Positions 18,114 to 34,544 of a DNA stretch of 64,000 bases are shown here, in pieces. The notes under the pieces were generated by a model. That model had not been told where the DNA came from. It saw only the letters and a program-made list of their open reading frames with translations, and made no database searches. Position numbers and translations under genes: made by a program. The DNA lies in the NCBI GenBank assembly GCA_021162685.1, contig JAGGYF010000028.1:4699-68698 (forward strand), read 5' to 3'. The stretch comes from Candidatus Iainarchaeum sp. Its GTDB lineage: Archaea > B1Sed10-29 > WALL01. Each line of letters starts with the position of its first letter. Positions within the stretch are counted from its first letter, which is position 1.

Positions 18114-20888
18114 TTGGTGAGAAGAATGAAAAAAGCCTTAGCAATCCTCTTGTTGGTTTGTGCTGCAGCAGCACTTCCAGACCTAGCAATAGAACGTTTT
18201 TCTCATGAGCTAGGTGAAGATTTTACAGTAAGCTTTACTGCTGTAATTACAAACAAAGGGACTAACTCAACAGAATCCTGTATAATGGCTTTTTCCCAGG
18301 ATGAAGAATGGGCAAATAATAAAATAATAACTATTGGCGCTCTTGAACCAGGCCAGTCCCAAAAAATCAACTGGCAATGGGAGTACTATGAGCCAGGTGA
18401 AAAAAAGCCAGGCATTTTTGTTGACGCATTTAATCCTGAATGCCAATGCTATCAAGGACCTGGTCATGCTGGAAGCATTGAAGAAGAAAACGAGGAAAAC
18501 AATGTCGCTTATCTGAGTTTTGAACTTGAAGCAGAGAATAAGCCGCCAGTAGCGATACTTGCTGTTCCAGTAAGTGTTTGCTTAGAAGGAGGAGAATGCA
18601 CTCCTCCTTGCTCAGTTGGCAAGCCATGCAGGTTTGATTGCTCGCAAAGCTACGACCCTGACGGCTTTATTAGCTGTTGGAGCATTGAATTCGGTGATGG
18701 AACAGCCCAAGCGTCAGAATGCGCAGCAGAAAAAGAAAACAAGCCTGGCGTGATCGAGCACAGCTACACTAAACCAGGAATCTACGAAGTCAAACTTACT
18801 GTCACTGATAACAAGGGAGCTAGTGGTTCAGCTACCGCAGGAATACAGGTCGGTGAAGTCACCAACCAGCCACCAGTAGCAAAAATAAGGCAAGTGGGCG
18901 ACTGCTATGCTTCCCAAAACTGTAATTTTGACGGGTCAAACTCTTATGATGCTGATGGGAAAATAGTGAAGTTTACTGTTGACTTTGGTGATGGTGAAAC
19001 CATTTCCTCAGAAGGCAGTCCAGCAGGGTTCGGGCATTCTTATTCAAGGCCCGGCACTTACGGAGTAACCCTCACCGTATTTGATGACAAAGGAGAAAAA
19101 GGATACGATAAAATTCTTGTCGAAGTTGAAGAATCCCCACTAGAAGAAGGCGTAGTGGAACTAGCAAAATGCCTTGGAGAAAAAAGTGTCCTTTACACGA
19201 ATGATGTCTGTCCATACTGCATAAAACAAAAAAGGCTTTTTGGAAACGCTTACCAGTACTTAACTGTCATGGACTGCGGCATTGACCTCTCCTTATGCAA
19301 AGAAGTGAAAGGTGTACCGACTTGGGAGATAAATGGAGTTAAATACACTGGTTACAAGTCCCTTGAAGAATTAAAGCAATTGAGTGGGTGTGGGGTTCCT
19401 GTTGAGGGATTGTATGCAAAAATCGGGGAGGAGTTTACCCTCTCAATAAACCAGCCAGTAAAAATAGTAGACTATATTGACTCCCATGCAAATCCATTGA
19501 AAATCACGCTACTAAGCATCAACCCGATCTGCCACCCTAAAGAACCGTGTCCCACTGTTATTCCTTATGCCCAAGTAAAAGCAGAGTTTAGTGGAGAAAC
19601 CGAAGTGCGAAAGATTACTACTGGAAGTGAAATAAATTTATTTGGGGTTGTATTGCGCACCATTAGCGTTGACAACATAGCACCGGGGTCAGTAACGCTT
19701 GTTGTCAAAAAGCCAGGAGTTATGTACTGCGAGCCAAACGTGGAATACCATTTTACCAACAAGTGCAAGTGTCCAGAAGGAACAAACTTGGTGTGGTTAA
19801 GCCGCTCTGTTTTTGTCTGCAAGAAAGAAGAGATTGTCCATGCGCGGCTGGGTCAAGCCTTTGAACTAAAGCCCAAGCAAATAGCGAAACTAATGGATTA
19901 TAGAGTCTTGACAATGCGTTTGGACAGCATTGTTTCTTCAGAAAACAAGAAAGCGGCTATTATCACTGTATGGCCAACATATGAGAGAGTCACCTTGGTG
20001 AAAGAGGAACCAATAACAGAAAAAGCAACAATGAGGCCTGTGACAGCCACCGCAGGCAAGGTAGTGACAGGTGTAAAAGTAGTACCAAGTATTACCAAGC
20101 CTGTTGAATCCCCACCAATTGTTCCCAGGCAATACCAAGTTTTAGAAGGAGAGTCAGTTAACGTGTTTGGAGTTAGGATGATGGTTAAAGAATTAACTGA
20201 AAGGTCTGCAGTATTTGTGATAACAAAGCAGACACCTTGGACTTCATGCGACCAAGCATGCAAGCAGAAGGGTTATGCAGGAGGACACTGCTCGTCAGCA
20301 TGTACAGGAGTTAGCATCGGAGAGGAGTTCTGTCCACAGCCAGTATTTGAAGCCAAAGAAGAGACACCCCCTCTTCCTCCAGTGCTGAGTTGCTGCTGCC
20401 AGCCAGAAGAAGAAACAATAAAAATTGTTATTCACAAGGGGTGGAACTTGTTCTCGATGCCTGGTGAAATAAGACCTGTATCAGAAAAGTGTGACAGCAG
20501 GAATTGGAGGGTTTTTGAGTATAACAGGGAAACAAGAAAATTTGAGGCAGTCAAATGGCCTGAGATTGGCAAGGCTTATTGGCTTTATGCTGACAAGCCC
20601 TGCACTGCAGAAGTGAGAATATCAAAACCTGTTTTGCTGGAAGAACTTGAGGGTATTTTGCCTGGTTGGAACCTCGTGCCAGTAGTTCCTGATATGATTG
20701 GAAAATCCCTTGAAGAATTAAGTGATTGTACTGGGCTGAAGGTTTACACATACGATACCAGCAGCAGGAAGTGGATAAAAGTGGATAAAATAACAGAAGA
20801 ATTCTATGGAAGGGGTCTGGCAGTAAAATCAGAGCTCAAATGCTCTTTTAACACACTGCCTTCCATTCCCCCTTTCCCAGAGGAGTGA
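18114..20888 (+). CDS. giant secreted Cys-rich surface protein: signal peptide, CARDB-like domain, two PKD domains, thioredoxin-fold domain with CPYC motif, and a Cys-rich C-terminal region
   Basis: N-terminal signal peptide MKKALAILLLVCAAAALP; PKD signatures CRFDCSQSYDPDG...FGDGT...YTKPGIYEVKLTVTDNKG and NFDGSNSYDADG...FGDGE...YSRPGTYGVTLTVFDDKG; CPYC at nt 19208-19219; many Cys throughout. Confidence 0.8.
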   Translation: MVRRMKKALAILLLVCAAAALPDLAIERFSHELGEDFTVSFTAVITNKGTNSTESCIMAFSQDEEWANNKIITIGALEPGQSQKINWQWEYYEPGEKKPGIFVDAFNPECQCYQGPGHAGSIEEENEENNVAYLSFELEAENKPPVAILAVPVSVCLEGGECTPPCSVGKPCRFDCSQSYDPDGFISCWSIEFGDGTAQASECAAEKENKPGVIEHSYTKPGIYEVKLTVTDNKGASGSATAGIQVGEVTNQPPVAKIRQVGDCYASQNCNFDGSNSYDADGKIVKFTVDFGDGETISSEGSPAGFGHSYSRPGTYGVTLTVFDDKGEKGYDKILVEVEESPLEEGVVELAKCLGEKSVLYTNDVCPYCIKQKRLFGNAYQYLTVMDCGIDLSLCKEVKGVPTWEINGVKYTGYKSLEELKQLSGCGVPVEGLYAKIGEEFTLSINQPVKIVDYIDSHANPLKITLLSINPICHPKEPCPTVIPYAQVKAEFSGETEVRKITTGSEINLFGVVLRTISVDNIAPGSVTLVVKKPGVMYCEPNVEYHFTNKCKCPEGTNLVWLSRSVFVCKKEEIVHARLGQAFELKPKQIAKLMDYRVLTMRLDSIVSSENKKAAIITVWPTYERVTLVKEEPITEKATMRPVTATAGKVVTGVKVVPSITKPVESPPIVPRQYQVLEGESVNVFGVRMMVKELTERSAVFVITKQTPWTSCDQACKQKGYAGGHCSSACTGVSIGEEFCPQPVFEAKEETPPLPPVLSCCCQPEEETIKIVIHKGWNLFSMPGEIRPVSEKCDSRNWRVFEYNRETRKFEAVKWPEIGKAYWLYADKPCTAEVRISKPVLLEELEGILPGWNLVPVVPDMIGKSLEELSDCTGLKVYTYDTSSRKWIKVDKITEEFYGRGLAVKSELKCSFNTLPSIPPFPEE

Positions 20889-21074
20889 TTGAAAATGAAG
20901 TTAATTGTCTTGCTTTTGGTTTGCGCACTTTTGCTTACACTAGGGTGCGTGGAAGTGACAGAAGAAACACCATTAAATGAAACCAATGTAAGTGTTGAGG
21001 AAACAACTGGAATCCCTACGCCAACTCCAGAAATGTGGAATGAGACAGCAGAGCCACCAGAGTTGCCGTTTTAG
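20889..21074 (+). CDS. small secreted Thr/Glu-rich peptide with N-glycosylation sequons
   Basis: Signal peptide MKLIVLLLVCALLLTLGC, then NET, NVS, NET sequons; TTG/ATG start immediately after the stop of the giant protein. Confidence 0.4.
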   Translation: MKMKLIVLLLVCALLLTLGCVEVTEETPLNETNVSVEETTGIPTPTPEMWNETAEPPELPF

Positions 21075-21121
21075 AGATTTCTTGACCCCACTTGCGGTGT
21101 TTCTTCAACTCATAGTCAGGC

Positions 21122-21550
21122 TCATAAAACAAGCAAAATCAGACTTATTGCCCCTAGTATTACTGCAAACAACTTTGTCGTAGTCAAACTCTCGTGAAAG
21201 AACAATATACCTCCCACAACAGCAATGATAAACGAGAGGCTTCTTATTGTGGAGACAAGTGATACTGGCCCGATATGTATCCCATATAGAAATGAAAAAT
21301 ATGCTATCCCCGCAACAACTCCTATCAGTATTATGAGAGGCAGTTCGTTTTTTACACCCATAATATCTGTCTTTCCGAGTATGAGTGAAAGAGCAAGAAC
21401 TGTTAGAAACATAAATAATGTTATCCACGTTACGACGATGAATCTATCCCCTTTGGCAACTTGTATAATAATGTTAGGATACCATAGAGAATCATAGCAG
21501 AAACTGCGGGGATTAACCAGTTCATCACAACACCCCCATAAGCAATGCAA
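21122..21550 (-). CDS. EamA/DMT-superfamily small membrane protein (4 TM)
   Basis: Four hydrophobic helices with an EamA-like pattern; the true start is likely internal, since the annotated N-terminal 45 aa are not hydrophobic. Confidence 0.45.
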   Translation of the reverse strand: MHCLWGCCDELVNPRSFCYDSLWYPNIIIQVAKGDRFIVVTWITLFMFLTVLALSLILGKTDIMGVKNELPLIILIGVVAGIAYFSFLYGIHIGPVSLVSTIRSLSFIIAVVGGILFFHESLTTTKLFAVILGAISLILLVL

Positions 21551-22634
21551 TTCCTAAACCAAGTATAATTATCCCTGCTACAAGGTGCAAGTGCCTAAGC
21601 TTTCCTTTCCTCCACTTCTCAACACGCTCTGGTGACAATCCTTTGTAAACCATAAATGTTATGAAAAGCATTGGGAGAATGAATATGGCATTATACAAAA
21701 GAAGCAACATAATTGCCAATGCCTGTGTTGCTCTTCTCGCTAATAATCCCAAAACAACAATATATGGACCACTTGTACAAGGCAACAAAAACAAACTGAC
21801 AATGAACCCAATAAAGAATGCACCTGGAGCACTTGTAACTGATTTTATTATGCGTTTTAGTGTTGGCCTCCATGACTGTGGGACTTCCATAACAAAGCCG
21901 CCACCACCATATCTCAGATAATCTTTAATGTTTAGTAAACCAACAACAACTGCAAGTGCACCTACTATATAGTAAATGGTTCGCGTTGCACCTGCCCATT
22001 GTATTGCAGAAAATAATCCTAAACCCATCAGAAAGTAAGAGATAAATATTGCTAATGAAAAAGCAATTCCTGCTTTTAACACCCTGAACCTATCACCAGC
22101 CACAAGGATTGTTGTAAGTAGGATAATAAGGACTGCAAATGCACACGGATTTATGGCATCAACAGCAGAACCAGCAATAACTGCTGAAACCAGTGAAAGA
22201 AGATTAACGCCCTCAACAGGCGATACCTCTTTTGTTGTAACGAATGTTGCATTTTCTATCTTTTCTCCAGGAGATGGACAGCCATATGTGATACACTCTT
22301 TAATTGTATTTTCTATGGCTTTTGGTGTTGGTTCACCAAAGATACCACGTGGATCCCATCCAACAATGACTTTGTTACCTATAAATAACGTAGGCACTCC
22401 TTGTATTGTTGTGTTGTATGCTTCTGCAGTCCTTTTAAACAATGCCCGGTTTGTTGTGTTTCTGTATATCTCAAATCGCTCAGCATGGAACTCGGGGTAT
22501 TTTGCCTCCATCTGCTCCAAAAAGGGCTCTTCTTTTGCACAATGCGGGCATCCTTGGCCCCAGAAGAAATATGCTGTTACATTATATGCAAAAACAGACG
22601 AAATGAGCAATAAAAGGAGGAATTTTCCCTTCAT
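21525..22634 (-). CDS. thiol:disulfide oxidoreductase: signal peptide + thioredoxin-fold (CPHC) domain fused to a CcdA/DsbD-like transmembrane domain
   Basis: WGQGCPHCAKEEPFL Trx motif; CcdA-type conserved Cys in TM helices (INPCAFAVL, LPCTSGPY); start moved to MKGKF (ATG at 22634 on the minus strand) with SD AAGGAGTGA. Confidence 0.75.
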   Translation of the reverse strand: MKGKFLLLLLISSVFAYNVTAYFFWGQGCPHCAKEEPFLEQMEAKYPEFHAERFEIYRNTTNRALFKRTAEAYNTTIQGVPTLFIGNKVIVGWDPRGIFGEPTPKAIENTIKECITYGCPSPGEKIENATFVTTKEVSPVEGVNLLSLVSAVIAGSAVDAINPCAFAVLIILLTTILVAGDRFRVLKAGIAFSLAIFISYFLMGLGLFSAIQWAGATRTIYYIVGALAVVVGLLNIKDYLRYGGGGFVMEVPQSWRPTLKRIIKSVTSAPGAFFIGFIVSLFLLPCTSGPYIVVLGLLARRATQALAIMLLLLYNAIFILPMLFITFMVYKGLSPERVEKWRKGKLRHLHLVAGIIILGLGIALLMGVL

Positions 22635-22732
22635 AGTATCACTCCTTTTATTAATCAACCGAAATATTTATATATAATTTTGAATATAAATTCATTACTG
22701 TATTGAATATATATTCAAAAGGAGGTGAATAT

Positions 22733-23065
22733 ATGCCATATGGAGATGGAACAGGACCTTTAGGATTAGGACCAATGACTGGAAGAGGTCTTGGATACTG
22801 CGCTGGATATAATGCTCCAGGTTTTGTTTTTGGCCCAGGTTGGGGCAGAGGAAGAGGCTGGCGCAGAGGATGGGGCAGAGGATTTGGATGGAGGTTTTGG
22901 GGTGCACCATATTGGAGAGCACCATATCCACAACAATACTGGAAACCAACAAAGGAGGAAGAAAAGACCATATTACAAGAAGAACTAAAAGCTTTAGAAG
23001 AAGAAATGAAGGCAATTGAAGAGGAAAGAAAAGCCATCCAGAAAAAACTTGCAGAGCTGAAGTAG
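22733..23065 (+). CDS. DUF5320 family protein (Gly/Arg/Trp-rich N-terminus, C-terminal coiled coil)
   Basis: GPLGLGPMTGRGLGYCAGYNAPGF...GWGRGRGWRRGWGRGFGW, then a coiled coil EEEKTILQEELKALEEEMKAIEEERKAIQKKLAELK; strong SD AAAGGAGGTGA. Confidence 0.6.
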   Translation: MPYGDGTGPLGLGPMTGRGLGYCAGYNAPGFVFGPGWGRGRGWRRGWGRGFGWRFWGAPYWRAPYPQQYWKPTKEEEKTILQEELKALEEEMKAIEEERKAIQKKLAELK

Positions 23066-23497
23066 ATGCCAAGACCAAGAAAACCCAGGTTGGTTGCAGG
23101 CGTCCCATCTATAACATATTTCAAACCTGCTGGCGTGCCTTTGCGTGGGGTTGATGAGGTAGTGTTAACAGTTGAGGAATATGAGGCTATAAAACTAAAA
23201 GACCTCGAAGGAAAGACACAGGAAGAAGCAGCAAAAGAGATGGATGTATCGCAACCAACATTCTTTAGAATATTAGAAAGCGCAAGGAAAAAGATTAGCG
23301 ATGCAATTGTTAATGGAAAGGTAATACGTATAGAAGGAGGTAGTTATATGGTAGGAAGAGGAAGAATGGGAGGGAGCGCACTTGGACCAGGAGGTTACTG
23401 TGTATGCCCAAAGTGTGGATATAAGGTTCCACATCAGAGGGGTGTTCCGTGCTATAGTATGACATGTCCAAAGTGTGGAACACAGATGACAAGGTGA
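23066..23497 (+). CDS. DUF134 (UPF0251) HTH DNA-binding protein with C-terminal Cys4 zinc ribbon
   Basis: MPRPRKPR...F.P.G.P...[39 protein letters not shown] is the DUF134 signature; C-terminus CVCPKCG...CPKCG. Confidence 0.75.
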
Positions 23498-23501
23498 AAA
23501 G

Positions 23502-23864
23502 ATGAAAGTCATCAGGAACCCGAATTGGATAGAAGGAAAGGGCGAGATGAAATACAAGAAGAGGATTTTGATGGAGAATGTCCCACCTTCAGTTAATTTA
23601 ATAGAGGATGTTGTGATACCACCAGGTGGGAAGATCCCCTCACATGCACACAAGGCAACAACCGAGTTGTTTTATATAACAAGTGGGAAGGCAAGGATGA
23701 AAGTCCAGAATAAAGAGTTTGAGGTTAACCCAAAAGATATGGTTTTAGTTGAGGTTGGGGAGAGTCATAGCTTTATCAATAATTCAGATGAAGATTTTGA
23801 AATGATAGTGCTTAAAATAAATTTCAGAAAAGATGACGCAATTTTATATGAGGTGAAAAAATGA
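23502..23864 (+). CDS. cupin domain protein
   Basis: Cupin beta-barrel motifs with conserved His (PPGGKIPSHAHKATTELFYITSGKARM...GESHSF). Confidence 0.6.
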   Translation: MKVIRNPNWIEGKGEMKYKKRILMENVPPSVNLIEDVVIPPGGKIPSHAHKATTELFYITSGKARMKVQNKEFEVNPKDMVLVEVGESHSFINNSDEDFEMIVLKINFRKDDAILYEVKK

Positions 23865-24259
23865 GAATAGCAGTAGCTTCGTCAGGACCAGGGCTTAATG
23901 CAGAAGCAAGCCCAATGTTTGGGAGATGTCCCTTTTTTGTAATTGTCAACATTGAGGAAAACAATATAAAGGAAGTTAAAAGCATTCCAAATACTGCAAC
24001 AGCATATCGTGGCGGAGCAGGTATATCGGCAGCAGAACTTGTGGGCAATGAGAACGTTGATGCAGTAATAGCTGGTGCAATAGGACCAAGGGCGTTTGAT
24101 GTGCTTAAACAGCTTGGGATAAAGCAATACATTGGCGTGCCAGGAACCGTAGAAAAAAACATTGACCTACTACTTAAAGGAGAGCTTAAAATGGTCGGCA
24201 GTCCAACAGGACCAATGAGGATGCCTCCTGGAAGAAGGGGCAGGAGAGGAGGTCAATAA
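23861..24259 (+). CDS. NifX/NafY/NifB-C-terminal-like dinitrogenase FeMo-cofactor-binding family protein
   Basis: MRIAVASSGPGL...FGRCPFFVIVNIEEN...GAG...AELV...VDAVIAGAIGPRAFDVL..LGIK matches the Nitro_FeMo-Co fold family. Confidence 0.75.
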   Translation: MRIAVASSGPGLNAEASPMFGRCPFFVIVNIEENNIKEVKSIPNTATAYRGGAGISAAELVGNENVDAVIAGAIGPRAFDVLKQLGIKQYIGVPGTVEKNIDLLLKGELKMVGSPTGPMRMPPGRRGRRGGQ

Positions 24260-24260
24260 A

Positions 24261-24470
24261 ATGCCAGAAGGAGTACCACGAACTGATGAAGAAAGAAGGG
24301 AAAGGCACAAGGAGAAATATGGAACAGAGGAAATCCCAGAAGAACGAAAAGGAAAGGCATCAAAAGCACTTGAGCAGAAGAAGAATCTGATTTTGGCTAT
24401 AAAGGTAGTGCTGGTGCTTGCAATTCTTTACTTTCTCTGGATAATTGTCAAGAGGGGTTGGGTTACTTGA
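24261..24470 (+). CDS. small membrane protein (single C-terminal TM)
   Basis: 69 aa with a charged N-terminus and one TM helix; sits inside the translationally coupled operon. Confidence 0.35.
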   Translation: MPEGVPRTDEERRERHKEKYGTEEIPEERKGKASKALEQKKNLILAIKVVLVLAILYFLWIIVKRGWVT

Positions 24471-25711
24471 ACAAGCTGAAACAAGGAGAGAGGGCAGCAG
24501 CAAAAGTGAGTGTGGGAACCCTAATCTTATCGCTAACAAAGGGAATTGTTGGATACATCACAGGAAGCACTGCTCTGGTAACAGATGCATTTCATTCCTT
24601 AGCAGACCTTATTGCTGCTGCGTCCTCCTGGTTTGGCCTAAAGATCTCACAGAGAAAACCAGATGAAATATTCCCTTACGGATATTACAAAGCAGAAAAT
24701 CTCGCTGGTCTGGTAGTTGCGTTGGTGATACTATACGCTGCTGCAACCCTACTTTTTGAAGGATTTTCCCGTATTGGTAAACCTGCAACAATACATGAAC
24801 CAATGCTCGCAATTGCAACGTCTATTGTATCCATTGGAATCGCATTTCTTTTCTATAAATATCTTAAGGCAGTAGGAGAGAAGATCAATTCGCCATCGTT
24901 AAAAGCAAATGCTAATGATAAACTTGTAGATATGGCATCTTCTTCGTTGGTGTTTATTGCCCTTGTGGCATCTTACCTAAACATACCTTACATTGAAGGA
25001 ATCGTGACAGTATTGATCTCGTTTTTAGTGATGAAAATTGGCCTAGAAACCGCAAAAGATTCTGTTCTGGCACTTATGGATGTCAGTCCGAGCAAGGATA
25101 TTGAAAAAAGGCTGGAATCTGTTTTATTATCTGTAAAAGGTGTAAGAAAAATAAAAAATCTCAAGCTTAGGAAAGCTGGGCCATTTGTATTTGGTGATGT
25201 TGAAATAGAAGTAAAAGGAAGTATTGATGTAAAAAGGGCACACAGTATAACAGAGGAGATACAAAAGAGTGTGAAGAGGAACATAAAAGAGATAGAGTTC
25301 ATTACAGTACATGTTGAGCCACATAAACCAAGAAGGCAAAAGGTTGTTGTTCCTGTGGAGAATGCAGATGGTATGCGTTCAAAAATAGTGAAGCATTTCG
25401 GGAGAGCCAGATACTTTGTTCTTGTTGAGCTGGATAATAACAAGGTAAAGAAACACAAGGTAGTAAAAAATCCATTTATTGGTGAAAAGATAAGGGCGGG
25501 TCTAAAAACTGCTGGATTTCTTGCTGAAAAAGGGATTGATGCTGTGATAACAAAATCAATAGGTGAGATCTCATTCCATACGCTAAGAGACCACTTTGTG
25601 GAAATCTACCACGCAAAAGGTGAGAATGTTGATGATACTATAAAGCTTTTTATTAGAGGGAAACTTAGACTACTTCGCAGACCGACAAAAGAAGCTGGCG
25701 GAATTGCATGA
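24458..25711 (+). CDS. cation diffusion facilitator (CDF) metal transporter fused to a C-terminal NifX-like cofactor-binding domain
   Basis: N-terminal 6-TM CDF with HSLADL motif and cytoplasmic CTD; the C-terminal 110 aa (VVVPVENADGMRSKIVKHFGRARYFVLV...GIDAVITKSIGEISFHTLRDHFVEIY) resemble the NifX-like protein at 23861; TTG start. Confidence 0.75.
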   Translation: MGYLNKLKQGERAAAKVSVGTLILSLTKGIVGYITGSTALVTDAFHSLADLIAAASSWFGLKISQRKPDEIFPYGYYKAENLAGLVVALVILYAAATLLFEGFSRIGKPATIHEPMLAIATSIVSIGIAFLFYKYLKAVGEKINSPSLKANANDKLVDMASSSLVFIALVASYLNIPYIEGIVTVLISFLVMKIGLETAKDSVLALMDVSPSKDIEKRLESVLLSVKGVRKIKNLKLRKAGPFVFGDVEIEVKGSIDVKRAHSITEEIQKSVKRNIKEIEFITVHVEPHKPRRQKVVVPVENADGMRSKIVKHFGRARYFVLVELDNNKVKKHKVVKNPFIGEKIRAGLKTAGFLAEKGIDAVITKSIGEISFHTLRDHFVEIYHAKGENVDDTIKLFIRGKLRLLRRPTKEAGGIA

Positions 25712-26544
25712 GGATATGTATAACAGGAGGAAAAGGTGGGACAGGTAAGTCATTGATAGCAACATCGCTCGCCTATCATCTTGGAAAAAATCACAAGGTG
25801 CTTCTTGTTGACCTAGATGTTGATTGCCCAAATGACCATCTTATACTGTCAACAAAAAGGGAGGTGTTAAAGGAGGTAAAACAGACCATTCCTGTGCTTA
25901 ACGAAAACAGATGTAAAAAATGTGGGATATGCAGTAATATATGCAGGGAGAATGCCATAGTATTCATAAGAAAACGATTTCCTATCTTCCTTCTTGACCA
26001 GTGTAATGGATGTAAAGCATGTATGGTTGCATGCCCTGCAAATGCAATAGAGGAAGGAGAGCGCGCATATGGTGTAATCTATAAGGGAAAAAATGAACGG
26101 ATTGACATGCTAGTAGCAGAACTCGTGCCAGGACAAAAAGAGGGCTCTCCTTTGGTACATGAAGCAATAAAACTTGTGGGTGAGAACAAAAAATACGATT
26201 TTGTTATTATGGATACTGCAGCAGGAATGCATTGTACTGTCATATCTGCACTTAGAGAATGCGACTATATACTCGCTGTAACCGAACCCACACCATTGGG
26301 CGCACATGATCTCAACCTAATCCTTGATTTAATTGATGAATTAAACATTCCTTCTGGTGTTATATTAAACAAGAGGGGCATTGGAAACGAGAAAGAGGTA
26401 AGAGAAATCACAAAAAGGCATGGAAAGAAGATTGTTGCAGATGTCCCATACAGTAAAGAGGTCATGGAAGCGTATTCCAAAGGCATCCCAGTACCGATTC
26501 GGTTTGTTGAGAAGTTGGTCTCATTTGTGGAGGAGATGAAATGA
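25708..26544 (+). CDS. MinD/Mrp-family P-loop ATPase with inserted double 4Fe-4S ferredoxin domain (COG1149-like, CooC-related)
   Basis: Deviant Walker [10 protein letters not shown]; two Cys clusters [11 protein letters not shown] and [12 protein letters not shown]. Confidence 0.8.
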
Positions 26545-26927
26545 AGGGTATATATGTACTCATTATAGATATTTCAAAGGATGTAACAATCAGAGTTGGC
26601 TCGCTTGGTAATATGCTTTTCAAAAAAGGTACGTATGCATATGTTGGATCTGCCCAAAACAATGTTGAAAAGAGGATTAGAAGGCACATGAATAAGAAGA
26701 AGAAATTATTCTGGCACATTGATTATCTTCTGAAAGAACCAGGGATTAGAATAAGAAGGGTGTTATACAAAAAAGCACCAAAAACAGAGGAATGCAGAAC
26801 AGCATCTGTTATCAGCAAAAGAGGGGAGGCAATTCCACAATTCGGATGCTCTGATTGTAAATGCAATAGCCATCTTTTTAAGATCACAGAGATGCCACTA
26901 AGAGGGTTTAGAGAGGTGATTACCTGA
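26541..26927 (+). CDS. DUF123 family GIY-YIG-like domain protein
   Basis: KGIYVLII...[20 protein letters not shown] matches the archaeal DUF123 / GIY-YIG clan signature; C-terminal Cys pairs (CSDCKC). Confidence 0.6.
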
Positions 26928-26995
26928 ATCCTATTTACGGTCCTGTACCCTCATGGAGACTTGGAGTTTCACTTGGAGTAGACCCTGTATGCAAA

Positions 26996-27685
26996 ATGCC
27001 AAAAATTTGCTCATTTGATTGTATCTATTGTCAGTTGGGAAGAACGGTCGTAAAAACGACAAAAAGGGAGAAATTTGTTGAAGCGGAGATTGTTCGCAGA
27101 GAGTTGAAGAAGGCATTACGTATTGTAACACCAGACGTTATAACATTCTCTGGGGTATCAGAACCAACACTTGCATCAAATATTTCAGACATCGTGAATG
27201 TAATAAAAGAGGAAACCGATATCCCTGTTGCTATTCTAACAAATGCTTCCCTTATATACAAAAAGGAGGTTATGGACGACCTCATGCATTTTGATATTGT
27301 ATGTGCGAAACTTGATGCTCCAAACCAAAAGATATTTGAGCAGGTAAACAGACCATCATACGGAATAAAAATTGATGATATTATCAACGGAATAAAAGAA
27401 TTTAGAAAAGGATTCACGGGGAAACTCGCACTACAAATTATGTTAGTTAACGAAAATAAACCATACGTGAAAGAAATTGCTAACATAGCAAGGGATATAA
27501 AACCTGATGAGATTCAACTTGATACTCCTCTTAGACCCTGTCCTGTACCTGCCCTTCCAGAGGAGGAGATGTATGAGGCAAAGCAATGCTTTGATGGATT
27601 GAATGTGATAATGGTGTATGATAGGAAAAAACCAGAGGCAAAAGCAATAGATAAGTATGAGACACACCTGAGGAGACCCACATGA
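26996..27685 (+). CDS. short radical SAM enzyme (CxxxCxxC)
   Basis: CSFDCIYC at residues 5-12 of the ATG-initiated ORF; the in-frame upstream peptide YGPVPSWRLGVSLGVDPV (open from 26912, after a TAG) resembles the conserved N-terminus of this radical SAM subfamily, so the real start is probably a non-ATG codon near 26924-26933. Confidence 0.7.
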   Translation: MPKICSFDCIYCQLGRTVVKTTKREKFVEAEIVRRELKKALRIVTPDVITFSGVSEPTLASNISDIVNVIKEETDIPVAILTNASLIYKKEVMDDLMHFDIVCAKLDAPNQKIFEQVNRPSYGIKIDDIINGIKEFRKGFTGKLALQIMLVNENKPYVKEIANIARDIKPDEIQLDTPLRPCPVPALPEEEMYEAKQCFDGLNVIMVYDRKKPEAKAIDKYETHLRRPT

Positions 27686-28566
27686 TAAAAATCACAGTAG
27701 TTTCTGGAAAGGGAGGAGTTGGAAAGAGTAGCATAGCAGCATCCATGGCACTGGTCTTGTCAAAAAACAGAGATATTGTTGCTGTTGATTGTGATGTTGA
27801 TGCACCAAACCTTGGGCTGTTGCTTGGTGTAAAAAAGGAGGGCTTCTCATACAAAGAAGTAGGTACAAAAGAGAAAGCGTCTCTCATAGAAGATAGGTGT
27901 ATAAGATGTAGAAAATGCGTGGATATCTGTGTGTTTTCAGCTATCTCATGGGATAACCTACCGATATTTGATAAATATCTGTGTGAGGGATGCGGAGCGT
28001 GCCAACTTGTATGTCCTGTTGATGCAATTGAACTCATAAAAGTGCAGAATGCATTTATTGGATTTACTGACACACAGTATGGGTTCCCTGTTGTTGGTGG
28101 TCAGCTAAAACCAGGAGAATCTGGGTCTGGTGATGTAGTAACATTAGTAAAGGAAAAGGCAGAGGAGATAGCTAACAAAAGAGGGATTGAGACAATGATT
28201 ATAGACTCTGCAGCAGGTATTGGTTGTCCTGTGATTGCCTCAGTAACGGGTTCAGATTACGTTGTCGCTGTCACAGAACCAACACCCGCAGCATTTAGTG
28301 ACCTTAAGAGGGTTTTGGAAGTTGTTGAACATTTCAACATACCATATGGGATAATTATCAATACATGGAACACCAATCCAGCGTTTACAGAAAAGATTGA
28401 GAAATTCGCTTCTGAGAACGAAATAACGTTACTTGGAAAAATCCCATATGACAAAGCCTTTATTGATGCCTTGGTTCAGCTGATGCCTGTTGTTGCTTAC
28501 GATAAGAGGTTTAAAAAATTGTTTAAAAGTATTCTAGAAAAAACTCTGGCAGAGGTAGAGAAATGA
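27682..28566 (+). CDS. second MinD/Mrp-family P-loop ATPase with inserted 4Fe-4S ferredoxin domain
   Basis: Deviant Walker A SGKGGVGKS; CIRCRKCVDIC and CEGCGACQLVCP. Confidence 0.8.
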   Translation: MIKITVVSGKGGVGKSSIAASMALVLSKNRDIVAVDCDVDAPNLGLLLGVKKEGFSYKEVGTKEKASLIEDRCIRCRKCVDICVFSAISWDNLPIFDKYLCEGCGACQLVCPVDAIELIKVQNAFIGFTDTQYGFPVVGGQLKPGESGSGDVVTLVKEKAEEIANKRGIETMIIDSAAGIGCPVIASVTGSDYVVAVTEPTPAAFSDLKRVLEVVEHFNIPYGIIINTWNTNPAFTEKIEKFASENEITLLGKIPYDKAFIDALVQLMPVVAYDKRFKKLFKSILEKTLAEVEK

Positions 28567-29363
28567 AAAGGATTATTATGTTAATGGTGTTGACTATGCT
28601 TTTGGGTTGCATTCAGAAAACAGAAAAATTTGAGGGGGTTTCTGCTGCTTCTGGCAGCATAAGGATCATAACACTTTATGACAACAATCCTTACGATGAA
28701 CGTTTTGAAACGGGTTTTGGCTATTCTTCATTAATTCAAGCTGGAAACAATACTATACTCTTTGACACAGGAGGAGATAGCATCACACTTTTAAGAAACA
28801 TGGAAAAGGCTGGGGTAAAGCCTGAAACAATAAACATTATTGTGCTTTCCCACATACATGGTGATCATACTGGCGGTCTTCTTGGCTTACTTGAGCATAC
28901 GAAAGCCCCCATTGTATACCTTCCATCATCGTTCCCTCAAGATTTTAAAGAAAAGGTAAAGACCAATGCAAAACTTGTTGAAGTCAGTGCGCCATCTGAA
29001 ATAAGCAAGGGGATTTATTCAACAGGAGAGCTTGGAACATGGATAAAAGAACAGTCACTAATCATAAAAAGCAGTAAGGGAATTATAATAATTACAGGGT
29101 GCGCTCATCCAGGGATTGTTGAAATCGTTAAGAAAGCAAAGGAGATTACTGGCGAAAGGGTTTACTTGGTTCTGGGCGGGTTTCATCTCAATGGCGCAAG
29201 TGAGAATGAGATCAGGAACATTGTTAGGGAATTCAGGGAGCTTGGAGTGGAAAAAGTAGCACCATGCCATTGTACTGGAGAAACTGCCACAAAAATTTTT
29301 AAAGAAGAATATAAAGAGTATTTCATAGAAAACGGGGTTGGAAAAACAGTAGTGGTAGAATGA
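28563..29363 (+). CDS. metallo-beta-lactamase-fold lipoprotein
   Basis: Lipobox-like LLGC after a signal peptide; HxHxDH motif SHIHGDHTGG. Confidence 0.7.
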   Translation: MKRIIMLMVLTMLLGCIQKTEKFEGVSAASGSIRIITLYDNNPYDERFETGFGYSSLIQAGNNTILFDTGGDSITLLRNMEKAGVKPETINIIVLSHIHGDHTGGLLGLLEHTKAPIVYLPSSFPQDFKEKVKTNAKLVEVSAPSEISKGIYSTGELGTWIKEQSLIIKSSKGIIIITGCAHPGIVEIVKKAKEITGERVYLVLGGFHLNGASENEIRNIVREFRELGVEKVAPCHCTGETATKIFKEEYKEYFIENGVGKTVVVE

Positions 29364-30193
29364 TTTTGGAAGCTTTAACAGAGACTTTGAAACTCCTTTT
29401 CATAGTTTTTATTCTTATGGTTGTAATTGAATATCTAGTCCTCAGATTTGAGAAAAAGATCAGAAGATATATTACAGGGAATCCTTTCACCCAGTATCTT
29501 GTGGCATCTGCGCTTGGTGCTATTCCAGGATGTATTGACGCATTTTTTGTCGTCTCTTTGTATACTGCTGGAATAGTAGGCTTTGGGGCCCTGGCTGCTG
29601 TAATGATTTCAACAGCAGGAGACGAGGCATTCATCATGCTTGCTATGATACCTGACACAGCCCTAATAATATTTGGAATCTGCTTTGTATTAGGCATTGT
29701 TGGTGGGTTCCTCGCTGACATTTTTGTTAAGAAGTTTAACCTCAAACTCAGTAAGAGTTGTTGCGTTCCAGTGCATAAAAAAGAAAAGGTAATAACATTG
29801 AAGCATTTTGTCAAAGAACATGTTCTCGGCCACATAGTGAAAAAGCACATGCCAAAGCTGTTCCTCTGGCTTTTTTTCACACTCCTTGTTATAAACTGGG
29901 CGCTTGCTAACCTTGAATTGCAATCCCTTCTTCCCAAAAACTACCTCTGGCTACTTGTTTTCGCAGCAATAGTTGGGATAATACCTGAATCAGGCCCCCA
30001 TATAATGTTTGTTGTGCTTTTTTCCAAGGGATTGATTCCCTTTTCAGTGCTCCTTGTGAACACTATAAGCCAGGATGGCCATGGTTTGCTCCCCTTGCTC
30101 TCACACTCAATAAAAGACACTATTTACCTACAAGTATTTACAACATTATTTGCCCTAGGGGTTGGAATAATTTTGTTTCTCTTAGGTGTTTAG
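29360..30193 (+). CDS. polytopic membrane protein, putative metal/metalloid permease (two repeats with Cys/acidic motifs)
   Basis: About 8 TM; internally repeated motifs GCIDAFF and TAGDEAF reminiscent of permease families. Confidence 0.45.
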
Positions 30194-30195
30194 GT

Positions 30196-30771
30196 ATGTT
30201 GGATGAAATTGCTGAAGAAATAAGAAAATGTAGAAGATGTGACCTATGGAAAACGAGAAAGAACACCGTACCAGGAGAAGGAAATGAAAATGCAGAGGTC
30301 ATGTTTATTGGAGAAGCACCTGGGAGAAAAGAAGATGAAACAGGAAAACCATTTGTTGGTGCTGCTGGAGATGTCTTGAACGAAATGCTTGATGGTATTG
30401 AATTGAAAAGAGAAGATGTTTTTATAACAAGTGTGTTGAAGTGTAGGCCCCCAAACAATAGAAATCCTAGACCAGATGAAATTGCTGCCTGTTCCTTATT
30501 TCTTGAAGAACAGATGAGAACTATAAAGCCAAGAGTAATTTGCACATTGGGGAATGTGGCAACTGCCTATCTCTTAAGGAGGTTTGGAATGAAACCGCAA
30601 CCAATTAGCAGAATACACGGAAAACCAATAAATATTGATACACTTGATTTGCATTTCACACTCATTCCGATGTATCATCCAGCAGCTGTCATATACAATG
30701 CTGGGATGAGGAATGCCTTAGTCAACGATTTTAAAACACTGAAGAAAGTGATTTATAGAAGAACGAGGTAG
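30196..30771 (+). CDS. udg: uracil-DNA glycosylase family 4 (Fe-S type)
   Basis: CRRCDL...[17 protein letters not shown] family 4 signature; H-P-A motif near the C-terminus. Confidence 0.85.
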
Positions 30772-30772
30772 T

Positions 30773-32836
30773 ATGGTTATGCCTGAGAAGATACGAAAAA
30801 GGGATGGGAGTGTTGTAAAATTTGACCAGAGGAGGATAACAAAGGCCATAGAAAGAGCAATAAAAGCCATAGGAAAAAAGGATGGAAAACTTGCTAAAAA
30901 ACTCTCGGATAGGGTTGTCAAAAAACTTGGAAAGGTAAAAATCACAACAGTTGAGAGGGTACAAGACGTTGTTGAAGAAGTTTTGGTGGAGTACGGCAAT
31001 GTAAAACTTGTGAGAGCGTATATTAGGTACAGATACCAACATGAAAAACTTAGAAAAACAAAGAGCCTATTTGAAGAAACCGATAAAATCATTGATAGTT
31101 ATCTGAAACAAAAGGATTGGAGAGTTAGGGAAAACAGTAACATCACGTATTCATTTGCTGGGCTCGTCATGTATGTATCAAATGCAGCAATTGCAAACTA
31201 CACTCTTGATAGAATCTATCCAGCGGAGATATCAAAAGCGCACAAATCAGGAGATATACACATACATGACTTACAGTTCGGATTAACAGGCTATTGCGCT
31301 GGTTGGTCACTAAAACAATTATTGCTTGATGGATTTGGTGGAGTTCCTGGAAGAACATCATCAAAGCCTGCAAAGCACTTTGATACCGCATTGTTGCAGA
31401 TGGTGAACTTTTTAGGTACGCTACAAAATGAATGGGCTGGAGCAATGGCATTTAGCTCTGTTGACACATACCTAGCACCATTTGTAGCCAAAGATAAACT
31501 CAGCTATAAGCAAGTACTCCAGGGCATGCAGAAGTTCATTTTCAATCTGAATATAACATCAAGGTGGGGCGGGCAGACACTATTCACAAATGTTACATTT
31601 GATTGGAAAGCACCAGAAGACCTAAGAGAAGAGCACATTATTATCGGAGGCAAACAATTAAGGCAGACATATGGCGAGTTCCAAGATGAAATGGACATGA
31701 TAAACAAGGCATTCATAGAGATCATGATGCAAGGAGATGCAAATGGAAGACCTTTCACTTTCCCAATACCAACATATAACATAACAAAAGAATTTGATTG
31801 GAATTCAGAAAATGCTGATCTACTGTTTGAGATGACAGCAAAATATGGGCTGCCCTACTTCTCAAACTTTGTTAATAGTGACTTGGATCCAAAAGATATA
31901 CGAAGCATGTGCTGCCACCTCAGACTGGATTTGAGACAACTTGAGAGGAATATCACTGGTGGATTATTTGGCTCTGCTGAACTTACTGGTTCTGTTGGCG
32001 TTGTAACCATAAATATGCCAAGGATTGGGTATCTGAGCAAAGATGAGGTAGAATTTTTTGAGAGACTTGATAAACTTATGGAGATAGCAAAAAACTCATT
32101 AGAGATAAAAAGAAAGGTTGTAGCAAGAAACATGGAAAATGGGTTGTTGCCATACTCAAAACGGTATTTGGGCAGTCTAGCAAACCACTTCTCAACTATT
32201 GGTCTTGTGGGAATGAATGAGGCTTGCCTTAATCTCTTCGGAAAGGACATAAGTACCAAAAAGGGAAAAGCATTTGCTGAAAGAACATTGAAACACATGC
32301 TTGAAAGATTGAAGGATTTCCAGGAAGAAACAGGAAACCTCTACAATCTAGAAGCAACACCTGCAGAAGGGTCATCATATAGATTGGCTTATCTTGACAA
32401 AAAGAAGTATCCAAAGATCATCACAGCAAGTAAGGAAGTTCCTAGATATACAAACTCAACGTGGCTGCCTGTGGATAAAACAGACGACGTTATCTATGCG
32501 CTAAAACATCAAGAAGCATTACAAACATTGTATACTGGTGGTACTGTTTTCCATGCATTTTTTGGAGAACGATTGAATAGCGGGAAGGCATGTAAGCGAT
32601 TTGTTAAAAAGGTCATGTATAAAACAAGGATTCCATACCTAACAGTTACACCAACATTTAGTATTTGCCAGGAGCATGGATACATTGTTGGTGAAGAAAA
32701 AACCTGTCCTATATGCGGAAAAGAAACAGAGGTGTATAGTAGAGTTGTTGGATATTTCAGACCAGTAAAGGATTGGAACCCTGGGAAGCAGCAGGAATTC
32801 AAGGAGAGAAAAACATACAATCCAAAGAAGGCGTAG
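30773..32836 (+). CDS. nrdD: anaerobic ribonucleoside-triphosphate reductase (class III RNR)
   Basis: N-terminal ATP-cone; C-terminal Zn ribbon CPICGKE plus glycyl-radical region (RVVGYFRPVKDWNPGKQQEFKERK). Confidence 0.9.
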   Translation: MVMPEKIRKRDGSVVKFDQRRITKAIERAIKAIGKKDGKLAKKLSDRVVKKLGKVKITTVERVQDVVEEVLVEYGNVKLVRAYIRYRYQHEKLRKTKSLFEETDKIIDSYLKQKDWRVRENSNITYSFAGLVMYVSNAAIANYTLDRIYPAEISKAHKSGDIHIHDLQFGLTGYCAGWSLKQLLLDGFGGVPGRTSSKPAKHFDTALLQMVNFLGTLQNEWAGAMAFSSVDTYLAPFVAKDKLSYKQVLQGMQKFIFNLNITSRWGGQTLFTNVTFDWKAPEDLREEHIIIGGKQLRQTYGEFQDEMDMINKAFIEIMMQGDANGRPFTFPIPTYNITKEFDWNSENADLLFEMTAKYGLPYFSNFVNSDLDPKDIRSMCCHLRLDLRQLERNITGGLFGSAELTGSVGVVTINMPRIGYLSKDEVEFFERLDKLMEIAKNSLEIKRKVVARNMENGLLPYSKRYLGSLANHFSTIGLVGMNEACLNLFGKDISTKKGKAFAERTLKHMLERLKDFQEETGNLYNLEATPAEGSSYRLAYLDKKKYPKIITASKEVPRYTNSTWLPVDKTDDVIYALKHQEALQTLYTGGTVFHAFFGERLNSGKACKRFVKKVMYKTRIPYLTVTPTFSICQEHGYIVGEEKTCPICGKETEVYSRVVGYFRPVKDWNPGKQQEFKERKTYNPKKA

Positions 32837-32843
32837 TGGTTGG

Positions 32844-33548
32844 ATGGAATTTAAAGGATTACAAAAGTTAACATTAATAGACTATCCTGGAAAATTGGCA
32901 TGCATAGTATTTACAGGAGGCTGTAATCTCAGATGTCCATTCTGCCAAAACAAGGACCTTGTTCTGAATTATGAAAAACTGCCATCAATATCAGAAGAAG
33001 AAATCATTAAGTTCCTTGAATCAAGAAGGAAATGGTTGGATGGGATTGTTATTACTGGTGGAGAGCCAACAATACACAGTGACCTACCAGAATTTATAAA
33101 AAAAGTTAAAGAGAGGAGGTTTCTTGTCAAGTTGGACACAAATGGCTCAAACCCGGCTATGTTGAAGATGCTTATTGAAAATAGACTCATTGATTATATC
33201 GCAATGGATGTCAAAGCACCATTGGAATGGGAAAAATACAGTAAAGCATCTGGCATAAAAAACAGAGAGATATTTGAGAACATCTTGAAGAGCATAGACA
33301 TACTTATGCACTCAAACATTGATTATGAGTTCAGGACAACTGTTGTTCCAGGATTGCACACAGAGGAGGACATCTTAAAAATTGCTGAGCAGTTGAAAGG
33401 AGCAAGGGCATATTATCTACAACAGTTTAGGCCAAGAACTACGTTGGACCCAAACTATGAAAAGATAGAGCCATATCCAAGAAAAATGCTTGAGAAACTT
33501 GTTGAAAAGATAAAAGGTTACTTTAAACATTGTGGTGTCAGAGGCTAA
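32844..33548 (+). CDS. nrdG: anaerobic RNR activating enzyme (radical SAM)
   Basis: CNLRCPFCQN radical SAM motif; immediately downstream of nrdD. Confidence 0.85.
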   Translation: MEFKGLQKLTLIDYPGKLACIVFTGGCNLRCPFCQNKDLVLNYEKLPSISEEEIIKFLESRRKWLDGIVITGGEPTIHSDLPEFIKKVKERRFLVKLDTNGSNPAMLKMLIENRLIDYIAMDVKAPLEWEKYSKASGIKNREIFENILKSIDILMHSNIDYEFRTTVVPGLHTEEDILKIAEQLKGARAYYLQQFRPRTTLDPNYEKIEPYPRKMLEKLVEKIKGYFKHCGVRG

Positions 33549-33588
33549 TGTAGAACATTATTGCTAGAAACTGTTTGGTTTCTGTTTA

Positions 33589-33855
33589 TTGGTTATCACC
33601 AATAACGTTAACCACCAAACTGCCATAACATTTATAAATCCCTTTTTCATTGTTCAGAACATGGCAAAGAAATGTGAATGTGTGATATGTAACATGCCGA
33701 ACCCAATGTTTTGGGGCATTGTCCTGACCATAGTTGGTATAGTGTACATCCTACAAGAGATGGGCACACAGATCCTACCAAAAGGGGTCTCGCTCTGGTC
33801 AGTGCTTGTCTTGATACTGGGTCTGTTCACACTATACCACAAGATACAGCAATAA
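33589..33855 (+). CDS. small membrane protein (2 TM, CxCxxC N-terminus)
   Basis: Hydrophobic helices IVLTIVGIVYIL and SVLVLILGLFTLY; probable start at the internal ATG 33661 (MAKKCECVIC). Confidence 0.35.
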   Translation: MVITNNVNHQTAITFINPFFIVQNMAKKCECVICNMPNPMFWGIVLTIVGIVYILQEMGTQILPKGVSLWSVLVLILGLFTLYHKIQQ

Positions 33856-33891
33856 TCGCAATAAATGCCCCAAAACGCTAGGTGAACCGTA

Positions 33892-33906
33892 TCATTTATA
33901 AATATA
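33892..33906 (+). promoter_or_regulatory. TATA-box-like element upstream of the rps13-rps4-rps11-rpoD operon
   Basis: ATTTATAAATATAAG about 105 nt upstream of the rps13 ATG. Confidence 0.3.
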
Positions 33907-33957
33907 AGTATGCAAAATAATAGGCATCTGGGCGAGTTTGCTATGCAAACGTGGACC

Positions 33958-33982
33958 CTAGAATAAGTGCTACTTATTCTAG
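33958..33982 (+). promoter_or_regulatory. perfect palindrome CTAGAATAAGTGCTACTTATTCTAG in the rps13 operon leader
   Basis: 11-bp inverted-repeat arms around GC...G, between the putative TATA box and the rps13 start codon. Confidence 0.4.
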
Positions 33983-34009
33983 TATGTCCAAAAACAAAGA
34001 GGGATTACT

Positions 34010-34534: not shown

Positions 34535-34544
34535 GGTGATATAG

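Follow-up and report, generated by a model that had tools for sequence, protein, structure and literature searches.

A 64,000-nucleotide stretch of the genome of an uncultured DPANN archaeon, Candidatus Iainarchaeum sp. (assembly GCA_021162685.1, contig JAGGYF010000028.1; the whole stretch is referred to below as the window) encodes a transporter of the cation diffusion facilitator (CDF) family that is fused, beyond its cytoplasmic C-terminal domain (CTD), to a NifX-like domain (IPR003731/Nitro_FeMo-Co). The CDF::NifX-like architecture is not rare, occurring in DPANN, other archaea and bacteria of the candidate phyla radiation (CPR), and the fusion appears to have arisen essentially once. The protein is read here, with confidence that is about evenly balanced, as a CDF-type divalent-metal (probably Fe2+)/H+ antiporter carrying a cytoplasmic metal-sulfide-binding module, with most of the uncertainty lying in the metal and in the choice among three ways in which the module could be coupled to transport.

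The fusion protein and its family

The gene had been described from an open reading frame (ORF) starting at TTG 24458, and from there the frame runs uninterrupted through 417 amino acids; this holds as described, with only the start codon adjusted. A second TTG, at 24467, overlaps the stop of the preceding 69-residue ORF (TTGA) and has a Shine-Dalgarno-like GAGGGG run 9 nt on its 5' side, and the TTG at 24458 sits immediately after that run, without spacing. Owing to the overlap with the upstream stop and the 9-nt distance to GAGGGG, TTG 24467 is preferred and is the likelier true start, which would give a protein of 414 amino acids. The 414-residue form is 100% identical to an NCBI record (P0001) from a Candidatus Diapherotrites metagenome-assembled genome (MAG), annotated as "cation diffusion facilitator family transporter". 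At the other end, the gene stops with TGA at 25709-25711, in overlap with the ATG start of its downstream neighbour (ATGA). Residue numbers throughout are those of the 417-residue frame.

The fusion is real. Well over 100 clusters at 50% identity turned out to hold the same CDF::Nitro_FeMo-Co architecture, for which the preliminary description had proposed a search. At least 120 relatives were listed from a collection of 5.8 billion proteins, and 120 of the 120 listed, at 42-54% identity, carry the three-domain set, which was recovered again when 39 of them were rescanned with Pfam. An exhaustive phmmer search with residues 205-417 (CTD plus NifX-like domain) against 1.84 billion 50%-identity cluster representatives gave 79 matches at E <= 1e-30 and 370 at E <= 1e-10; among 149 new representatives listed, 114 have the transmembrane domain, CTD and NifX-like domain and 26 are short CTD plus NifX-like proteins, probably fragments, the junction being spanned in 140 of the 149 down to ~26-30% identity. 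A frameshift or gene-calling error joining two adjacent genes is a general possibility in any metagenome-assembled genome, with nothing further in its favour; since the same junction, with its conserved connector (P299, 99%), recurs in hundreds of independent assemblies to that same low identity, and the reading frame is unbroken, the sequencing frameshift that had been named as a possible refutation is ruled out and an artefact has next to no probability.

A relative is encoded by 249 species genomes in GTDB, and in the best 80 of these, all of them MAGs, the alignment covers residues ~4-412. Carriers among the best 80 include DPANN archaea (Iainarchaeia/Diapherotrites, Aenigmatarchaeota, Woesearchaeota, Micrarchaeota and Parvarchaeota), other archaea (Bathyarchaeia, Thermoplasmata, Methanomassiliicoccales, Methanosarcinales and one Promethearchaeia) and CPR bacteria (Portnoybacteria and Nealsonbacteria). 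Some carriers come from bins (TPA 'binchicken' assemblies) assigned to Gammaproteobacteria, Pseudomonadales, Actinomycetota or Saccharibacteria. These labels are not trusted, and the loci nonetheless hold the same DPANN/CPR-like cluster; the labels may be wrong, or the cluster may move between lineages by horizontal transfer. In a neighbour-joining tree of 64 fused domains and 77 stand-alone NifX-like domains from neighbouring genes, 60 of the 64 fused domains fall in one clade and none of the 77 stand-alone domains lies inside it, an exclusivity that argues for the single origin of the fusion.

The N-terminal part is a canonical CDF with six transmembrane helices and a cytoplasmic CTD, as the preliminary description had it, and the motifs quoted there were all located (HSLAD at residues 46-50, FGRARYF and GIDAVITKSIGEISFHTL). 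Pfam places Cation_efflux (PF01545) at residues 19-207 (1.3e-48, 165.8 bits) and ZT_dimer (PF16916) at residues 211-289 (7.3e-20, 71.2 bits), and the CDF model TIGR01297 scores 237.7 bits (1.5e-70) against a cut-off of 82.35. The full-length AlphaFold2 (AF2) model (pLDDT 84.4, pTM 0.58) has six transmembrane helices (3-35, 38-64, 77-107, 115-143, 146-173 and 178-206), a CTD of alpha-beta-beta-alpha-beta order and an alpha/beta C-terminal domain. In Foldseek searches, the N-terminal 290 residues return YiiP on top (5.8e-15), with ZnTs also found, and the C-terminal part of the full model matches PH0822; the best structural match of the CTD is MamM-CTD (TM-score 0.90). Subfamily hidden Markov models (HMMs) of NCBIfam rank MamB (186 bits) and MamM (184.7) above MntE (133), FieF (131) and ZitB (76), all scores being below the respective equivalog cut-offs.

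Alignment to Shewanella YiiP (D47, D51, H155, D159) gives an A-site quartet of H46 and D50 in the second transmembrane helix and D154 and D158 in the fifth, that is, HD-DD in the window protein versus DD-HD in YiiP. H262, H285 and E287 align opposite the YiiP site-C ligands H263, H285 and D287, and the site-B histidines of YiiP are replaced by Phe and Tyr. Residue conservation was computed over 210 family members: D50 is invariant, the three CTD residues are 88-90% conserved, and the quartets are HD-ED (88 members, the commonest), HD-EH (42), HD-HD (14), DD-ED (12) and HD-DD (11), the rest being rarer types. The assignment of a metal from the A-site was given up, the quartet being variable in the family and its correlation with selectivity limited in the literature (PMC5703985). 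The protein resembles both YiiP/FieF and MamB/MamM, of the Fe/Zn branch of the CDF family, in its six helices, in the Asp/His A-site of the second and fifth of them and in a metallochaperone-like CTD with His/Glu ligands, YiiP being the best full-length PDB match and the Mam proteins the best matches by CTD structure and subfamily HMM; unlike the window protein, neither group has a domain beyond the CTD.

That additional domain follows almost without a linker, three residues separating the last CTD strand (279-289) from the first NifX-like strand (293-300), in a region where P299 is nearly invariant. Because the soluble half modelled alone gives a pLDDT of 87.3 and a pTM of 0.74, a defined, non-floppy arrangement of the two domains is predicted with moderate confidence. 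The termini of CDFs lie inside, as established for YiiP, and the fused domain is for this reason expected to be cytoplasmic. CDFs generally export from the cytoplasm, which would therefore put the domain at the substrate-entry side, directly below the CTD metal site. The architecture varies among close relatives: in the CDFs P0263 and P0256, two or four ZT_dimer domains in tandem replace the NifX-like one.

Affinities of the fused domain

The C-terminal region had been described as a NifX-like cofactor carrier, and the fold stands. Nitro_FeMo-Co (PF02579) matches residues 307-399 (8.9e-18, 64.8 bits against a gathering score of 26.3), and superposition on TM1816, MJ0327, PH0822 and the orange protein gives TM-scores of 0.83-0.92 (0.89 for the orange protein of Desulfovibrio gigas, 2wfb). 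The separate Pfam match and these superpositions rule out an extended but ordinary CTD. What did not stand is the identification with NifX or NafY proper and, with it, the picture of a nitrogenase-type carrier. A profile built from 29 fused domains and run against all PDB sequences matched MTH1175 (3.7e-28), TM1290 (6e-24), TM1816 (4e-22), PH0822, MJ0327, 2wfb (6.4e-11) and Ta1041, with no match to NafY or NifX at E <= 1, and no nif genes were found among the annotated neighbours (18114-35150) or in the related loci inspected. Given this lack of both a NifX/NafY match and a nif context, NifX/NafY in the strict sense was ruled out and a FeMo-cofactor carrier is unsupported. MTH1175, also the best match in a single-sequence search of solved structures (5.5e-18), is much closer to the fused domain than is the orange protein.

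The nearer functional analogues of the fused domain would be IssA and the orange protein instead of NifX/NafY. To our knowledge, IssA is the sole member with a defined chemistry. Vaccaro et al. (2017) placed MTH1175 in the clade of IssA, the thioferrate storage protein for iron and sulfide of Pyrococcus furiosus (PF2025), whose globular IPR003731 domain alone binds Fe and S, whose cationic tail of Gly, Arg and aromatic residues is believed to wind around the anionic polymer, and which carries one Zn per protein (PMC5524996). The fused domain shares with IssA the IPR003731 domain, a putative place in the MTH1175/IssA branch (by way of MTH1175), a high isoelectric point (pI) and few or no cysteines: in the window protein the domain has a pI of 10.2, a net charge of +12 and no cysteine, the family median pI is 9.3 and 155 of the 210 members are Cys-free. 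About a quarter of the family also has the tail, since in ~40 of 162 full-length relatives the domain is followed by an acidic spacer and then by an end rich in Arg, Gly and Trp (e.g., ...RRRGPWWGRW or ...GRGGGRGRFGGRGPRWGR). One relative (P0159) has a DUF59 (FeS_assembly_P) domain beyond the NifX-like one. The differences are that IssA is soluble and forms ~20-nm particles, whereas the fused domain is membrane-tethered and, in the window protein, tail-less.

The signature of the domain in the window protein is HFGRA, NP, RAGL and GEISFHTLRD, and that of the fused clade hFGRA, N-P, RAGL, GEISFHTLRD, Y and PT. Conserved polar positions include N338 (97%), H374 (79%), which lies within the family-specific GEISFHTLRD motif, R377 and D378, together with G348 and G369. 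The histidine of the HFG motif, H313, would correspond to H35 of NifX, which we take to be the histidine of the NifX HFG motif. In NifX, H35 ligates NifB-co (PMC13128457). The fused domain is thus like NifX, NafY and the C-terminal domain of NifB in Pfam family and fold, and in the window protein it keeps this histidine; it is unlike them in that the histidine is 71% conserved across the fusion family and in the missing profile match to NafY/NifX structures.

Gene neighbourhood

From 22703 to 30193 the window holds a string of twelve genes, all on the + strand and no more than 4 nt apart or overlapping by 4 nt, except for a 68-nt gap before the radical SAM gene (Table 1). The stand-alone NifX-like gene does lie two genes upstream of the fusion, with the 69-residue ORF between them, and its product aligns with the fused C-terminus over 110 residues without gaps (27% identity, E = 2e-18).

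Table 1. Coordinates of the fusion gene, its domains and the genes of the surrounding string in the window
Feature	Position	Strand	Basis
CDF::NifX-like fusion gene, 417 codons open	24458..25711	+	ORF list, Pfam, NCBI identity
Transmembrane domain, residues ~11-207	24488..25078	+	TIGR01297, AF2 helices, YiiP alignment, Foldseek
Cytoplasmic CTD (ZT_dimer), residues 211-289	25088..25324	+	Pfam, YiiP alignment, MamM-CTD match
NifX-like (IPR003731/Nitro_FeMo-Co) domain, residues 293-412	25334..25693	+	Pfam, AF2, structure comparison, profile
DUF5320 protein, Gly/Arg/Trp-rich region then coiled coil	22703..23065	+	Pfam 1.4e-31
DUF134 (sigma-70 region-4-like helix-turn-helix) putative regulator, C-terminal CxCPxCG...CPxCG module	23066..23497	+	Pfam 1.1e-26
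Cupin_2 protein, not a conserved cluster member	23502..23864	+	Pfam
Stand-alone NifX-like/IssA-like protein, short cationic tail PPGRRGRRGGQ	23861..24259	+	Pfam Nitro_FeMo-Co 2.5e-21
69-residue ORF, charged N-terminus, one C-terminal transmembrane helix	24261..24470	+	No Pfam match
MinD/CbiA-type P-loop ATPase, inserted 2x[4Fe-4S] ferredoxin motifs, Orp3/Orp4-like architecture	25708..26544	+	Pfam, NCBIfam
DUF123/GIY-YIG-like protein, occasional cluster member	26541..26927	+	Pfam
Radical SAM protein, occasional cluster member	26996..27685	+	Pfam, NCBIfam
Second MinD/CbiA-type ATPase, 2x[4Fe-4S] insert	27682..28566	+	Pfam, NCBIfam
Metallo-beta-lactamase-fold protein, recurrent cluster member	28563..29363	+	Pfam scan
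ArsP_2/'arsenic efflux' 10-transmembrane permease, end of gene string	29360..30193	+	Pfam 5.1e-42; NCBIfam NF037962

The neighbours of the window were used as phmmer queries against 85 related loci, and counts were taken from the 40 non-redundant loci with at least 4 kb of flanking sequence on both sides. The stand-alone NifX-like gene, the MinD/CbiA-type ATPases with the inserted 2x[4Fe-4S] ferredoxin (MinD-Fer4, usually in two copies) and DUF134 each occur in 33 of the 40, at least one of these three core genes being present in 35. DUF5320 occurs in 14 loci, the metallo-beta-lactamase-fold gene in 10 and the radical SAM gene in 6. The Cupin_2 protein found no match in the 85 loci, and the 69-residue ORF matched in two, both close relatives; a 72-residue ORF stands in the equivalent place in L086 (6786-7004). 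Pfam tables of six loci show the same gene order as the window together with recurrent metal genes: ZIP in L001 and L088; in L003, a P-type ATPase, an EncFtn-like protein and an ABC-3 permease accompanied by its own ATPase; and, in an Aenigmatarchaeota MAG (L087, 8819-9449), FeoA and a DtxR-type iron-dependent repressor within the cluster, flanked on one side by the fusion and the stand-alone NifX-like gene downstream of it and on the other by the MinD-Fer4 pair. This last arrangement is the most direct contextual pointer to iron. The ArsP_2 permease of the window (144.8 bits to NF037962, cut-off 100) and the ZIP, ABC-3 and P-type ATPase genes at comparable places elsewhere indicate that the cluster repeatedly takes in different metal transporters. 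The same core genes are found in a CPR example (L004), and a network study of ANME-2a noted a CDF beside NifX-like, 4Fe-4S and P-loop genes, with nickel uptake only speculated upon (PMC12622379). That study, the one joint mention given by the literature searches, extends the neighbourhood to a methanotroph.

The string resembles the orange protein (ORP) cluster of Desulfovibrio. In that complex (Orp3, Orp4, Orp5, Orp8 and Orp9/MrpORP), Orp3 and Orp4 each have two 4Fe-4S motifs and a MinD-like, membrane-targeting amphipathic C-terminus, Orp8 is a single-domain Di-Nase orange protein and Orp9 unites a Di-Nase domain with an Mrp-type Fe-S carrier in one fusion protein, and Orp8 and Orp9 are in a physical complex with Orp3 and Orp4 (PMC6345978). 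The orange protein assembles clusters of the S2MoS2-M-S2MoS2 type with several divalent metals, according to work cited in that article (PMC6345978). An ORP-type set can be matched by architecture in the window, consisting of the stand-alone Di-Nase (NifX-like) protein and the two paralogous MinD-like ATPases, the second of which has an amphipathic-looking C-terminus (KRFKKLFKSILEKTL). Both systems are anaerobe-specific, and in Orp9, too, a metal-trafficking protein carries a fused Di-Nase domain at its C-terminal end. The ORP cluster as described is unlike the window cluster in lacking a transporter; its regulation is by sigma-54/OrpR, where the DUF134 protein is the candidate regulator here; and the Di-Nase domain of Orp9 has Cys/His motifs (CXHFGHCE and CDH), neither of which occurs in the fused domain of the window. 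Neither an Mrp-Di-Nase fusion nor sigma-54/OrpR was found in the window cluster, where the MrpORP model NF041136 gave partial matches only (33-62 bits against a cut-off of 450).

Three proteins of the cluster contain low-complexity stretches rich in Gly, Arg, Trp and aromatic residues, namely GWGRGRGWRRGWGRGFGWRFWG in the DUF5320 protein, PPGRRGRRGGQ in the NifX-like tail and GRGRMGG in the DUF134 linker. By analogy, the chemistry of these stretches matches the description of the thioferrate-binding tail of IssA, and the DUF5320 protein, which holds a GWGRGRGWRRGWGRGFGW stretch, may be a free-standing IssA-like tail on a coiled coil. In a related locus (L012, 5965-6585), a stand-alone NifX-like protein with a Gly/Arg tail continues into a Cys-rich module (CVCPKCGFRVPHQRGIPCFQHKCPKCG) near-identical to the C-terminal module of DUF134; judged from this recurrence, the module appears to be a mobile metal- or cluster-binding module of the system, and it might be a candidate counterpart of the small [2Fe-2S] protein of the ORP operon.

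Directly after the cluster (30196-33548) lie genes for a uracil-DNA glycosylase, which is also found near the cluster in L001 and L086, the anaerobic ribonucleotide reductase NrdD (649 bits) and its radical-SAM activase, and the presence of the latter two suggests that the organism is a strict anaerobe. Upstream are a protein of 924 residues that looks secreted and contains CARDB, two PKD domains and Cys-rich segments (18114-20888) and, next to it on the - strand, a fusion of a thioredoxin-motif protein with a DsbD/CcdA-type membrane domain (21525-22658). The + strand holds most long ORFs and all annotated genes except the DsbD-like one. The window is ~40% GC, its GC and AT skews are persistently positive, and the cumulative GC skew rises monotonically except for a dip at 56-58 kb, where a 368-residue ORF lies on the - strand.

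Proposed function and its alternatives

In the proposed mechanism, the protein would act as a homodimeric M2+/H+ antiporter, exporting from the cytoplasm as in CDFs generally. The metal moved is probably Fe2+, for which MamB and MamM as best-scoring HMMs, MamM-CTD as the best CTD match, the Fe-S and iron context, and the tails and DUF59 fusion of family members speak together. The fused domain, next to the CTD metal site (H262, H285, E287) on the cytoplasmic entry side, would bind an anionic metal-sulfide species non-covalently, much as IssA does thioferrate and the orange protein a Mo-Cu-S cluster. Such binding would couple the cytoplasmic pool of Fe-S or metal-sulfide species, and the ORP-like proteins, to metal translocation in one of three ways: by gating the exporter (sensing), by donating metal to the pore, or by docking the MinD-Fer4 and NifX-like partners at the membrane. 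The direct hand-off between CDF pore and cluster scaffold that the preliminary description had put forward is thus plausible as a putative step, and the fused domain might just as well serve in sensing or docking.

Several findings weigh against an iron/H+ antiporter with a metal-sulfide-binding module. The scores to MamB (NF033616) and MamM (NF033615) fall well short of the equivalog cut-off of 350 bits, so the protein belongs to neither; the A-site quartet varies across the family (HD-ED in 42%, HD-EH in 20%) and is HD-DD in the window protein; A-site composition correlates only weakly with selectivity, and HD-ED has been described in a clade assigned to Zn (PMC5703985). The window protein lacks the cationic Gly/Arg/aromatic tail, its H313 is kept by 149 of the 210 members, and the way in which its NifX-like domain docks on the CTD is predicted from a monomer AF2 model. 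In the neighbourhood, five of the 40 loci (e.g., L005) have none of the three core genes, and the likeness of the MinD-Fer4 proteins to Orp3 and Orp4 is one of architecture, so that their homology to these, and the orthology of the set to DVU2103, DVU2104 and DVU2108, is putative.

Some of these points would suit an ordinary efflux CDF for Zn, Co, Ni, Mn or Cd in which the NifX-like domain is a regulatory or metal-buffering add-on, comparable to His-rich loops or to the HMA domains of P-type ATPases, with no part in Fe-S chemistry. The commonest quartet of the family being the one known from the Zn-assigned clade, the retention of the site-C-like ligands, the ZIP, ABC-3, ArsP_2 and P-type ATPase genes that suggest general metal homeostasis, and the one Zn of IssA itself all fit such a protein. 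It accounts poorly for the persistent linkage to MinD-Fer4 pairs, for FeoA and DtxR in one locus, for the IssA-like tails and DUF59 fusion, and for a CDF core that scores best with the iron CDFs MamB and MamM, and we consider it possible though rather unlikely. A role of the fused domain mainly as a protein docking module, anchoring an ORP-like complex at the membrane and binding no cluster itself, seems to us unlikely. It draws on the complex of Orp8 and Orp9 with the membrane-targeted Orp3 and Orp4 (PMC6345978), the amphipathic-looking helix at the end of one MinD-Fer4 protein in the window, the overlap of the fusion stop with a MinD-Fer4 start codon and the incomplete conservation of the histidine equivalent to NifX H35; against it, the conserved polar motif (N338, G348, G369, H374, R377, D378) and basic charge look like a ligand site, and the tails and DUF59 fusion indicate Fe-S binding. 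Docking is in any case compatible with the favoured antiporter and does not exclude it.

The kinship in sequence and structure with the orange protein, which builds clusters with several divalent metals (in work cited by PMC6345978), also brings to mind a thiomolybdate or thiotungstate system, in which the NifX-like domains would hold S2MoS2-M-S2MoS2 clusters and the CDF would bring in or take away their bridging divalent metal (Cu, Fe, Co, Ni or Cd). The weak best matches of the radical SAM neighbour are a W-cofactor maturase and MoaA, which points the same way; these reach ~43 bits against cut-offs above 300, however, for a gene present in 6 of the 40 clusters, the clusters that were inspected showed no genes for Mo/W transport or cofactors, and MTH1175 is far closer to the fused domain than the orange protein, so that this reading is very improbable. 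A bolder extension of the iron antiporter, which we regard as doubtful, is that the protein belongs, as the membrane component, to a hitherto unrecognised system by which anaerobes handle iron-sulfur minerals, a functional parallel to MamB/MamM in magnetosomes. In it, the fused domain and its soluble paralogues would nucleate a membrane-tethered thioferrate or Fe-S polymer, iron transported by the CDF would pass directly onto this polymer or come directly off it, and MinD-Fer4 would drive cluster transfer. Were this true, it would be the first defined physiological role for the ORP/NifX-like/MinD-Fer4 clusters of anaerobes.

No description of a CDF fused to a Nitro_FeMo-Co/IPR003731 domain was found in literature searches, in keeping with the earlier statement that no characterised example was known, and searches on DUF134 and DUF5320 turned up mostly unrelated DUF134x families. 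Database records name the fusion proteins simply as CDF transporters. The architecture is present in databases and undescribed in the literature searched; since its two parts are each familiar and public data already hold many members of the family, it counts neither as categorically new nor as a discovery of new sequence. Current understanding is not overturned, and the finding is informative for the fields of metal homeostasis and Fe-S biogenesis, adding a CDF architecture in which a cluster-binding-type domain follows the regulatory CTD.

Many anaerobes that do not fix nitrogen possess stand-alone NifX-like proteins and MinD-type ATPases with ferredoxin inserts, proteins whose role is unsettled, and the ORP complex of Desulfovibrio is only "putatively involved in cell division". 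The single-origin fusion to a transporter provides a Rosetta-stone link, suggesting that the NifX-like module works at the membrane with divalent-metal flux. The function of a widespread gene cluster of anaerobes would thereby be tied to the traffic of a metal, probably iron, across the membrane, and becomes testable, with a bearing on how the small-genome DPANN and CPR organisms of sulfidic habitats may manage their iron.

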